Assembly (NCBI GenBank): GCA_013202875.1
Contig: JABMRD010000172.1
Location: forward strand, 3,417-27,416
Direction of reading: 5' to 3'
Length of the DNA stretch: 24,000 nucleotides
DNA from: Actinomycetota bacterium
GTDB lineage: Bacteria; Actinomycetota; Humimicrobiia; Humimicrobiales; Humimicrobiaceae
The position numbers and the translations under genes were made by a program. The stretch's first letter is position 1. Every line of letters begins with the position of its first letter. Positions 14,608 through 16,210 of this stretch are shown in pieces. Under the pieces are notes generated by a model. The model searched no databases, was not told the DNA's origin, and saw only the letters and a program-made list of their open reading frames with translations.

Positions 14608-16193
14608 CAGATTACAGATGTTTTTATCAGCTTATGCAAGAATGGTTTTTTTAAATTAATAACTAGTATATCTGGACTGGAGAAGTCAACTACCTCTCTC
14701 TAAAGGAAGAGGCTTGAATAAAGTCTCTGGTTGACTAGGAGGCATAGTTATTATGCAGAAGTTAAAAGAAAGAAATACATACACACCTACAGTTATTCCG
14801 CAAGATTGTAGCAACTGTGGTTTGTCATTAAACAGTCCTTTTGAGGTACGGGACAGTGTGGCAAGCTTAAAAACTTCTTTTAACAGCTCCGATGCGGCTC
14901 TCACTGCCAGAGAACAGGCAGGACAGAACTTGCGAGTATCTGTCGTAAATGTTCTCAATAAAAGAGGAGTTCCCCTGATGCCTTGCAAACCTCAAAAGGC
15001 TAGAAGACTTCTTAAAGAAGGAAAAGCTAAGGTATTAAAGAGAACCCCGTTTACTATTCAATTGTTATATACAACTGGAGAATCAAAACAAAATCTTACA
15101 TTAGGGGTAGATGCTGGATACTCTAATGTAGGTTTGTCTGTAGTTTCAGCAGATAAAGAATTGTATTCAGCAGAATTAAAATTAAGAACTGATATGGTTA
15201 AGCTCAATTCAGAGAGGGCTACGTACAGAAGAACCAGAAGAAGTAGAAAGACGTGGTATAGAAAAGCAAGATTTCTTAATAGAAAGAAACCACAGGGATG
15301 GTTAGCTCCCTCGATCCAAAATAAGCTGGATACTCATTTGAAGATTATCGAAAGAATAAGGGGTATTCTTCCTATTTCTAATGTAGTTATAGAAGTAGCT
15401 GCGTTTGATACACAAAAGATCCAGAATCCAGAAATTACGGGAGTTGAATATCAGCAAGGTGAACTGGTGGGATATAAAATCAGAGAATACTTATTAGAGA
15501 AATGGAAAAGGAAATGTGCTTACTGTGGGGAAAAAGACATTCCTCTCGAAATTGAACATATTATACCAAAATCAAGAGGTGGCTCCAGCAGGATATCCAA
15601 TCTAACGATTTCCTGCAACAAATGTAATTTAAAGAAGGGCAACAAAACAGCAGAAGAATTTGGACATCAAGAAATACAGAAACAGGCTAAAGAATCCTTA
15701 AGAGCGACTGTATTTATGAATAACGTTAGATGGAAATTAGTAAATCTACTGGGTTGTAAATGGACTTATGGTTATATAACAAAACACAATAGGATTAAAT
15801 TAGGATTAAAAAAATCACATTCTAACGATGCTTTTATTATAGCAGGGGGTTCAACACAAAAAAGAAACGATCAAATATTTTGGATTAAACAGGTTAGAAA
15901 ATGTAATCGGAAACTTTTTAAAGGGAAAAGAAGTCATCTTAAAAATACTGCACCGAGGTTCGTTAAAGAGTTTCAACGTTTTGACAAAGTGCTTTGGAAA
16001 AATATTGAATGCTTTATCTTTGGAAGAAGAAGTACAGGATACTTTGATATTAGAATGTTAAATGGCCATAAACTTTCTTCGAGTGCAAAAGCTAAAGATT
16101 TAAAATTATTAGAGACCTTTAAAACATTATTAACAGAAAAAATGCGTTTCCTCCCCTACCTAAAGGATGGGGTCTCCGCACAAAGGATGGAAG
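14608..16193 (+). mobile_element. Non-autonomous IS200/IS605-type IscB (OMEGA) element filling the gatA-gatB spacer; ends approximate
   Basis: A ~1.6-kb spacer lies between genes that are normally adjacent in an operon. It contains a candidate omega RNA plus iscB and no tnpA. Exact ends cannot be set without an empty-site comparison. Confidence 0.6.
14640..14935 (+). ncRNA. Candidate IscB omega RNA (HEARO-type guide RNA scaffold); boundaries approximate
   Basis: This is the expected position, immediately 5' of and overlapping the iscB start. Nested stems are present: 14684-14690/14730-14736 and 14693-14697/14708-14712, plus 14787-14792/14806-14811. Possible long-range pairs are 14674-14679/14833-14838 and 14725-14730/14907-14912. 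It is more GC-rich than the other spacers. No covariance search was possible. Confidence 0.5.
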
Positions 16194-16210
16194 ATGAAAA
16201 ACGAATATGA
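14753..16210 (+). CDS. iscB: IscB RNA-guided endonuclease (PLMP, RuvC-I, RRXRR bridge helix, RuvC-II, HNH, RuvC-III, C-terminal TID-like tail)
   Basis: Motifs in order: [167 protein letters not shown]. Coordinates are the maximal ORF. IscB homology starts near 14936, so TTG 14930 is an alternative start. Confidence 0.9.
   Translation: [485 protein letters not shown]

Follow-up and report, generated by a model that had tools for sequence, protein, structure and literature searches.

The gatA-gatB junction

The 24,000-nucleotide (nt) stretch of contig JABMRD010000172.1 analysed here (the window) comes from an Actinomycetota bacterium and carries a gene for IscB, the small ancestor of Cas9, within its gatCAB operon. 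A 485-amino-acid (aa) open reading frame (ORF) at 14753-16210 is sited between gatA and gatB, giving the gene order gatC, gatA, iscB, gatB with all four genes on the + strand; gatB is an essential gene. We read positions 14685-16193 as a 1509-bp non-autonomous element of the IS200/IS605 family that is made up of a gene for omega RNA plus an intact iscB, with no transposase, a reading to which we give a probability of about 85%. Its insertion point lies exactly between the presumed ribosome-binding site of gatB and the gatB start codon. All parts, from guide, scaffold and nuclease to the two transposon ends and the target-adjacent motif (TAM), fit into 1.53 kb of the operon, and the rest of the window holds housekeeping genes only.

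A preliminary description of this DNA had placed an IscB ORF inside the gatCAB operon, and gatA and gatB do flank it. It had also called the site a stand-alone OMEGA locus with no CRISPR array, cas1/cas2 or tnpA. An array scan and ORF annotation agree on these absences: the window ORFs include no Y1 (HUH) TnpA transposase and no cas gene, cas1 and cas2 among them, and the 24 kb contain no CRISPR-like array. In place of "stand-alone", we describe the locus as a non-autonomous IS200/IS605-type element with defined ends, for which the gatB start codon serves as TAM.

The IscB protein

Profile, sequence-to-PDB and fold comparisons all agree, and the product of the 485-aa ORF is on this account assigned to IscB by its sequence. 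The NCBIfam guided_IscB equivalog (NF040563) matches residues 65-363 with 396.2 bits against a cutoff of 175. Pfam RRXRR covers residues 65-236 (E=4e-67, 225.8 bits against a cutoff of 25), and Pfam HNH covers residues 255-298 (E=2e-13). Among PDB sequences searched with phmmer, TbaIscB is the best match (6e-47) and OgeuIscB entries score about 1e-39 to 4e-41, with IsrB and then small Cas9s below the IscB chains. The same alignments pair D120, E214, H269, H356 and D359 of the ORF with D61, E193, H247, H340 and D343, the RuvC and HNH catalytic residues of OgeuIscB (Kato et al., 2022; PMC9640706). The catalytic and RRTRR positions are invariant or nearly so in an alignment of 42 homologues. Homology to characterised IscBs begins at ORF residue 63, which corresponds to OgeuIscB residue 2, and the PLMP motif occupies ORF residues 74-77. 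The core comprises 426 aa, the segment from the bridge helix to RuvC-II is only ~45 residues long, and there is no recognition (REC) lobe.

An AlphaFold model built on the 42-homologue alignment has moderate confidence, with a predicted local distance difference test score (pLDDT) of 74 and a predicted template modelling score (pTM) of 0.56. The top eight Foldseek matches of this model in the PDB are all IscB-omega RNA-DNA complexes (E=7e-23 to 3e-15), and the whole-chain alignments span full-length IscB; IsrB and then type II-D Cas9 appear further down the list. The C-terminal stretch is modelled as six beta strands (core residues 348-403, pLDDT ~73-82), a predicted arrangement consistent with the beta-barrel of a TAM-interacting (TI) domain. 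At the sequence level, this domain has no match to the TI domains of solved IscBs.

The preliminary description had reported the canonical IscB domain order, an HNH insert, no REC lobe and intact catalytic residues, and had proposed profile searches and a structural comparison. Each of its motif codon positions translates as claimed, profiles and PDB alignments bear out the domain order from PLMP to RuvC-III, and all five catalytic residues align one-to-one with those of OgeuIscB. The guided_IscB, RRXRR and HNH models are passed, Cas9 models stay far below their cutoffs, and the leading fold matches are the IscB complexes named above. RNA binding and cleavage by the protein are predicted from its family membership.

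The IscB family is well known and very abundant, is named automatically by NCBI, and has been characterised structurally and biochemically. At least 7993 proteins among 8000 candidates scored match with E<=1e-10, and in an exhaustive library the matches with E<=1e-30 form at least 811 clusters at 50% identity. The identical IscB protein is found on four contigs from different samples, each time between gatA and gatB.

The omega RNA and its guide

The region upstream of the IscB core matches the HEARO family (RF02033) in cmscan over the full model, 1-211 (121.2 bits, gathering score 83, E=6e-25). The first base of the match, 14685, is also the element boundary. The RNA had been expected at ~14600-14940, and the HEARO/omega RNA is indeed found there, at 14685-14904. 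Its scaffold pseudoknot pairs GGAGG (14738-14742) with GCUCC, and the pairing covaries in relatives as GGAGG/CUCC, GGGGG/CCCC and GGGAG/UCCC. Folding of the whole RNA (14665-14935) yields a z-score of only -2.0, and the Rfam covariance match is the stronger evidence. Codons 1-51 of the called ORF double as omega RNA scaffold, and its overlap with the omega RNA as a whole is put at ~60 codons. A 100-aa ORF runs antisense to the omega RNA at 14686-14988 on the - strand; nothing supports it, and it is probably a by-product of stop-poor sequence.

The flank TATCTGGACTGGAGAA, immediately outside the element, would be the guide at the 5' end of the omega RNA. Its 16-nt length is borrowed from OgeuIscB (PMC9640706), hence inferred. 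It holds GGAG, the presumed native Shine-Dalgarno sequence of gatB. In the occupied site the guide precedes GTCAA, not ATGAA, so on this analysis the element should not target itself.

Element ends, hairpins and target motif

The limits of the element are drawn from an independent copy on a short metagenome contig (L003), which has 92-96% nt identity and unrelated flanks. Homology between this contig and the window begins exactly at 14685 and ends at a common ATGAA, after which the two diverge; the element is thus placed at 14685-16193. In 37 relatives with both ends mapped, element length is 1442-1580 bp. The presence of the L003 copy at another site shows apparently recent mobility of this type of element.

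The L003 copy (protein P0003) is also a mosaic. It is near-identical to the window element except in the HNH region, where L003:838-1139, equivalent to window 15465-15763, is swapped for the cassette of another IscB subtype (CxxCKGKSKD...HHI...TLCxTCH). The mosaic points to recombination among IscB elements.

The hairpin at the iscB 3' end is conserved by covariation in 47 relatives. Paired cells make up 84% of its alignment, against 64% in shuffles, and there are 78 double changes where shuffles have 24. At 0.533, compared with 0.186, the covariation score is reached by none of 500 shuffles, and slid controls score 0.05-0.16. An outer helix around this hairpin has a pairing register that varies by subfamily and is not countable on one alignment. 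Hairpins from the two ends of the same element are more alike than hairpins from different elements (mean score 19.1 against 13.0, Wilcoxon p=8e-6), the pattern expected if one TnpA reads both ends.

The ATGAA that follows the element is the reverse complement of TTCAT, the wild-type TAM of GstIscB (Meers et al., 2023; bioRxiv 10.1101/2023.03.14.532601). The motif also fits the NNRR TAM of OgeuIscB (PMC9640706).

Start codons of host genes in the clade

Junctions of 50 non-redundant relatives were located by the ATGA that follows the terminal hairpin, which leaves only the fifth base informative. This base is A in 40 of the 50. Of 46 informative sites, 32 have a junction ATG that begins an ORF of 60 codons or more, compared with 26% of other same-strand ATGA sites (p=7e-10). 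In all ten downstream ORFs tested, the Pfam domain starts at profile position 1-2 and protein residue 1-12, and one of these ORFs is a complete ribosomal protein L34. Host genes with such start sites encode transaldolase, phosphoesterase, epimerases, ribosomal protein L34, flavoprotein, shikimate dehydrogenase, FAD oxidoreductase, DNA ligase and topoisomerase. The upstream flanks, which would provide the guides, are enriched in Shine-Dalgarno-like motifs (38% against 13%, p=4e-4). The ATG is thus a host start codon and the opposite flank is rich in Shine-Dalgarno-like sequence; therefore, these elements sit between ribosome-binding site and start codon.

The iscB stop codon lies within 30 nt of the host ATG in 46 of the 50 relatives. 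It is a TGA inside ATGA in 16, a TGATGA overlap in eight and TAAGATGA in nine, a layout typical of translational coupling. That every element supplies a Shine-Dalgarno sequence of its own was considered and rejected, as such sequences occur in 41% against 13% of controls (p=0.05), mostly in one subfamily; other subfamilies end in a hairpin plus a T-run.

Three further arrangements were seen among the relatives. One subfamily has a long hairpin and then a T-run (...GAGCCATGTTTTTAAG, directly followed by ATGAA), which resembles an intrinsic terminator immediately before the host start and lacks a Shine-Dalgarno-like sequence. At L035:2627-2636, a tandem ATGAAATGAA follows the element, and its second ATG opens the downstream ORF. 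Two loci contain a second omega-RNA-like segment besides the one before iscB (L050:5457-5669 and L069:1116-1302), and the flank of the second copy in L050 repeats an internal piece of the scaffold (..TTGATCAGGAGGCGTTTAAAGATGC..). These second segments suggest tandem or nested insertions.

Possible translation of iscB through the omega RNA

The called iscB ORF opens inside the omega RNA scaffold. The AGGAGG ahead of the ORF is a conserved Shine-Dalgarno-like strand of the pseudoknot, and the ATG at 14753 is conserved and in frame inside the scaffold. The loci compared for the extension were the window (14737-14938), L005-L084 and L167-L222. Upstream of the PLMP domain, 53 of 55 close relatives have at least 50 codons free of stops in the iscB frame; for each of the other frames the count is 0 of 55. 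Of 48 close relatives in which a conserved ATGC motif was identified purely from sequence, 45 have it in frame, and its distances to the PLMP domain take 13 different values, each divisible by three. On average, a sequence has 0.06 stop codons in this frame, compared with 3.1 and 4.6 in the two others. The close relatives were picked with a query that included the extension, which biases this sample, and the comparison was repeated on viral contigs picked with the trimmed protein. In this second sample, 27 of 47 loci have an open iscB frame, as opposed to three and two for the other frames, and the ATGC motif is in frame in 20 of 24, across nine distances that are again all multiples of three.

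Codon-position diversity is flat in the extension (0.32/0.32/0.34), against 0.32/0.20/0.58 in the core. The frame is therefore preserved and the peptide sequence is not, and the N-terminal extension as a selected peptide was rejected on this ground. Only about one in six broad-family cluster representatives have such an extension in their gene calls, and on this ground it is taken as a feature of the clade.

The 485-aa ORF as called may thus be the real product. In the reading that we put forward, iscB is translated from the scaffold AUG at 14753, and folding of the RNA as guide hides the GGAGG in the pseudoknot; the parts of this proposal range from tentative to slightly favoured. It competes with the explanation that IscB is translated from a start beside the PLMP domain (TTG 14930, 426 aa) and that the first 59 codons are an annotation artefact, for which the odds are a little short of even. 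Characterised IscBs start at the PLMP domain, as the alignment of OgeuIscB residue 2 with ORF residue 63 reflects, and ~80% of broad-family cluster representatives begin there. Published curation trims such N-terminal insertions as mis-calls (PMC13180657), the extension lacks codon-position periodicity, and TTG 14930 has a weak AGGA upstream. However, a start beside the core leaves the upstream frame without an explanation in both samples, where the other frames are open in 0-6% of loci, and the same holds for the in-frame ATGC motif at distances divisible by three and for the near-absence of in-frame stops. In addition, 17 of the 55 loci have no ATG, GTG or TTG within eight codons of the core.

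Translation from the scaffold AUG can be joined with the position of the elements in a wider proposal, which is possible with the odds rather against it. Here, the clade would consist of start-codon dockers, in which ATGA(A) serves as TnpA target, IscB TAM, host start codon and often iscB stop, and the host gene is translated by coupling. IscB would be made from the scaffold AUG with the pseudoknot GGAGG as Shine-Dalgarno sequence, so that guide folding or IscB binding and translation exclude one another and form an autoregulatory switch. This architecture was not found described in the literature searched, which is no claim that it is unpublished.

Table 1. Positions of the features discussed. 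Coordinates refer to the window unless a locus number (L) of a relative is given.
Feature	Position	Strand	Remarks
gatC	12842-13129	+	Pfam GatC
gatA	13150-14607	+	Pfam Amidase
gatC and gatA	12842-14607	+	Upstream and co-oriented; their transcription would supply guide and omega RNA
Guide-encoding flank TATCTGGACTGGAGAA	14669-14684	+	Outside the element; would be the 5' guide of the omega RNA
Omega RNA scaffold, HEARO RF02033	14685-14904	+	cmscan; starts at the transposon end, may reach ~14930
Hairpin at the omega RNA end, CCTCTCTCTAAAGGAAGAGG	14693-14712		Right-end hairpin in TnpA terms; first omega RNA stem-loop
AGGAGG (14737-14742), 10-nt spacer, ATG (14753)	14737-14755	+	Candidate true translation start of iscB
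iscB ORF as called, 485 aa	14753-16210	+	Conserved core from ~14930 (TTG) or 14939 to ~16138
PLMP domain	14939-15106	+	PLMP codons 14972-14983; aligned to OgeuIscB residues 3-60, PLMP 14-17 (PMC9640706)
Split RuvC	15110-15829	+	Asp 15110, Glu 15392, His 15818, Asp 15827
Arg-rich bridge helix, RRTRR	15227-15241	+	ORF residues 159-163, between RuvC-I and RuvC-II
HNH domain inserted in RuvC	His 15557	+	Pfam HNH, residues 255-298
C-terminal beta-rich domain, presumed TI	15971-16138	+	Predicted model
Terminal region at the iscB 3' end	16143-16193		Transposon left end in TnpA terms
Hairpin CCCCTACCTAAAGGATGGGG	16153-16172		TGCG/CGCA on its flanks; covariation
Linker after hairpin CCCCTACCTAAAGGATGGGG	to 16193		Ends in Shine-Dalgarno-like AAAGGATGGAAG; element end as set by L003
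ATGAA	16194-16198	+	Putative target/TAM (reverse complement TTCAT); gatB start (ATG AAA)
gatB	16194-17645	+	Start codon abuts the element; start per gene calls
iscB stop TGA	16208-16210	+	14 nt inside gatB
Host-gene start sites after elements	L006:2155, L007:4449, L010:2152, L012:1766, L014:2409, L016:2915, L027:4448, L032:4503, L034:4458, L047:3813; window 16194	co-oriented	
T-run subfamily	L009:4398-4464, L012:1704-1770, L016:2853-2919, L038:1585-1651		

Age and neighbourhood of the insertion

The same insertion is present in a metagenome-assembled genome (MAG) of Candidatus Hydromicrobium (Actinomycetota, class Humimicrobiia; locus L004), with 96.65% identity over 7.7 kb. Identity between the two is 98.0-98.75% in the element and 93.75-99.1% in the flanking genes. 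As the element falls within the range of its neighbours, the insertion is, on these sequences, older than the split of the two lineages and has been inherited vertically. The iscB of the MAG lacks 1 nt of a G-run at the site that corresponds to window 15845, which shifts the frame past the RuvC-III motif (P0002, 435 aa); this is either real decay or a homopolymer assembly error. Phage records give three weak partial matches of ~66% identity, which are uninformative.

On the + strand, a promoter and terminator scan detected nothing promoter-like from 14274 to 17203 and nothing terminator-like from gatA to gatB; its totals are no higher than in shuffles, and it is used only for this absence between gatA and gatB. 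Elsewhere in the window, a 19-nt unit, GTATAGAATAATATCAATA, is repeated 2.2 times at 19554-19597, in an AT-rich spacer between pfk and a gene for an RRM protein.

Proposed mechanism and alternative explanations

The steps proposed here follow from published IscB and IS605 biology. Because the guide lies outside the element and no promoter-like site was found, the omega RNA would derive from gatCA read-through transcripts, in line with the general argument for upstream read-through as the source of iscB omega RNAs (Meers et al., 2023; bioRxiv 10.1101/2023.03.14.532601). The same source reports an orientation bias for iscB, with which the co-orientation with gatA agrees. In such a transcript, the ~16 nt of TATCTGGACTGGAGAA at the 5' end would act as guide and the scaffold would bind IscB. 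The complex would recognise the empty gatA-gatB junction by a guide match and then the TAM ATGAA, and would cut both strands, one by HNH and one by RuvC. Homologous repair from an occupied chromosome copy would reinstate the element, and such homing would guard it against loss following excision by TnpA. The occupied site, with GTCAA at the TAM position, would escape cutting. Transposition would need TnpA supplied in trans; only ~1.5% of iscB genes lie near a tnpA, and non-autonomous elements are the majority (Meers et al., 2023; bioRxiv 10.1101/2023.03.14.532601). Expression of gatB would probably be kept by read-through, the Shine-Dalgarno-like terminus and translational coupling to iscB. 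The element end AAAGGATGGAAG puts AAGGA (16183-16187) 7 nt before the gatB ATG, and the iscB stop lies inside gatB; thus, both a replacement Shine-Dalgarno sequence and translational coupling are plausible for gatB.

Several observations weigh against this account of the element. No TnpA was seen. In the reconstructed empty site, a gap of only 2 nt separates GGAG from the ATG, an unusually short spacing for a Shine-Dalgarno sequence. No exact empty gatA-gatB site was found, as all contigs with identical GatA or GatB carry the insertion, and the target of the guide is a reconstruction that we infer. Among species representatives, the nearest insertion-free relatives have only 69-77% GatB identity; in these, gatA and gatB adjoin with no insert, and the distance is too great to give the exact donor joint. 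The frameshifted iscB of the MAG suggests that the gene is dispensable and may be decaying. The confidence of the structure model is only moderate. Finally, shuffled sequences match the stability of the iscB-3'-end hairpin as bare DNA (z=-0.2 and 0.0), and bare-DNA thermodynamics was dropped as evidence, with covariation used instead.

Some of these points would also be accommodated if the element were an immobile, fixed relic, whose iscB is intact by recent descent only, idle and heading for decay. Such a relic would fit an insertion that dates back to the split from the Ca. Hydromicrobium MAG, the frameshift in the MAG copy, and the failure to find an empty site or a tnpA. Yet no catalytic or nearly invariant family residue has been lost, the four contigs share one and the same intact ORF, and the separate L003 copy at 92-96% nt identity speaks for recent mobility; the MAG frameshift lies in a G-run and could be an assembly error. 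We consider the relic unlikely. A protein-guided HNH homing endonuclease, or a mini-Cas9 (type II-D) with its array outside the window, is more improbable by far. The HNH domain alone weakly matches Cas9, Cas9d and other HNH families, and type II-D Cas9 structures do appear lower in the fold list. However, the protein has a complete split RuvC, bridge helix and PLMP domain, passes the IscB equivalog and reaches only 60 bits with the Cas9d model, against a cutoff of 375. Directly upstream there is a cognate omega RNA, the 24 kb contain neither a repeat array nor cas1/cas2, and the element has its own transposon ends. The IscB profile, the omega RNA and the element ends effectively refute both identities.

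Taken as an IscB locus, the non-autonomous element in gatCAB adds little to a known family. It is a clean, fully delimited natural example within an essential operon, and it shows how such an element can reside in an operon without killing its host. The regularities across the clade, namely insertion at start codons, the iscB stop at the host ATG and the open frame through the guide RNA, would matter more if confirmed. They would bear on the expression and tolerance of OMEGA elements, and on how IscB ORFs are annotated and trimmed when they are mined for genome editing.

Comparison with known systems

As judged from its sequence, the locus shows every testable defining feature of IscB and of non-autonomous IS200/IS605-type (ISC) elements, save TnpA. 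An absent TnpA is compatible with IS200/IS605-type membership, and the mobility of the window element is putative.

The closest structural counterpart is OgeuIscB (PDB 7xht, 7utn and 8csz; Kato et al., 2022; PMC9640706), which gives the best fold matches. It has the same order of PLMP, RuvC-I, bridge helix, RuvC-II, HNH, RuvC-III and, presumably, WED/TI, and its five catalytic residues align with those of the window protein. Its omega RNA is also encoded 5' of the gene with a guide at the 5' end, as in the window. However, identity is ~20-28% over the structural alignments, and OgeuIscB has 496 aa, against 426 in the window core. The C-terminal domain of the window protein has no detectable sequence match in OgeuIscB, and the window ORF has an N-terminal extension of ~60 aa encoded by the omega RNA. 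TbaIscB (PDB 9k30) is the best sequence match in the PDB, at 6e-47, but its chain of 1068 residues has large additions. IsrB (PDB 8dmb) has the PLMP, RuvC and bridge-helix core in common with the window protein but lacks the HNH domain, which the latter possesses with its catalytic histidine H269. Cas9 and Cas9d share the RuvC-HNH core and the RNA-guided logic and match weakly. Unlike these, the window has no REC lobe, CRISPR array or cas1/cas2, and its scores fall far below the family cutoffs.

At the level of the element, the nearest parallel is ISGst IscB of Geobacillus stearothermophilus, which encodes GstIscB (Meers et al., 2023; bioRxiv 10.1101/2023.03.14.532601). It is likewise non-autonomous, of the IS605 type and co-oriented with its upstream gene, and its homing model, based on cleavage of the donor joint, is adopted here. 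It differs in that no cognate TnpA has been identified for the window element, whose activity is predicted. The passages of that paper that were searched make no mention of a TAM that coincides with a host start codon. The omega RNA of the window is a full-length match to HEARO RNA (RF02033) above the gathering score, pseudoknot included. In contrast to the Rfam consensus, which has no AUG at that place, the scaffold of the window clade carries a conserved in-frame AUG and an open iscB frame.

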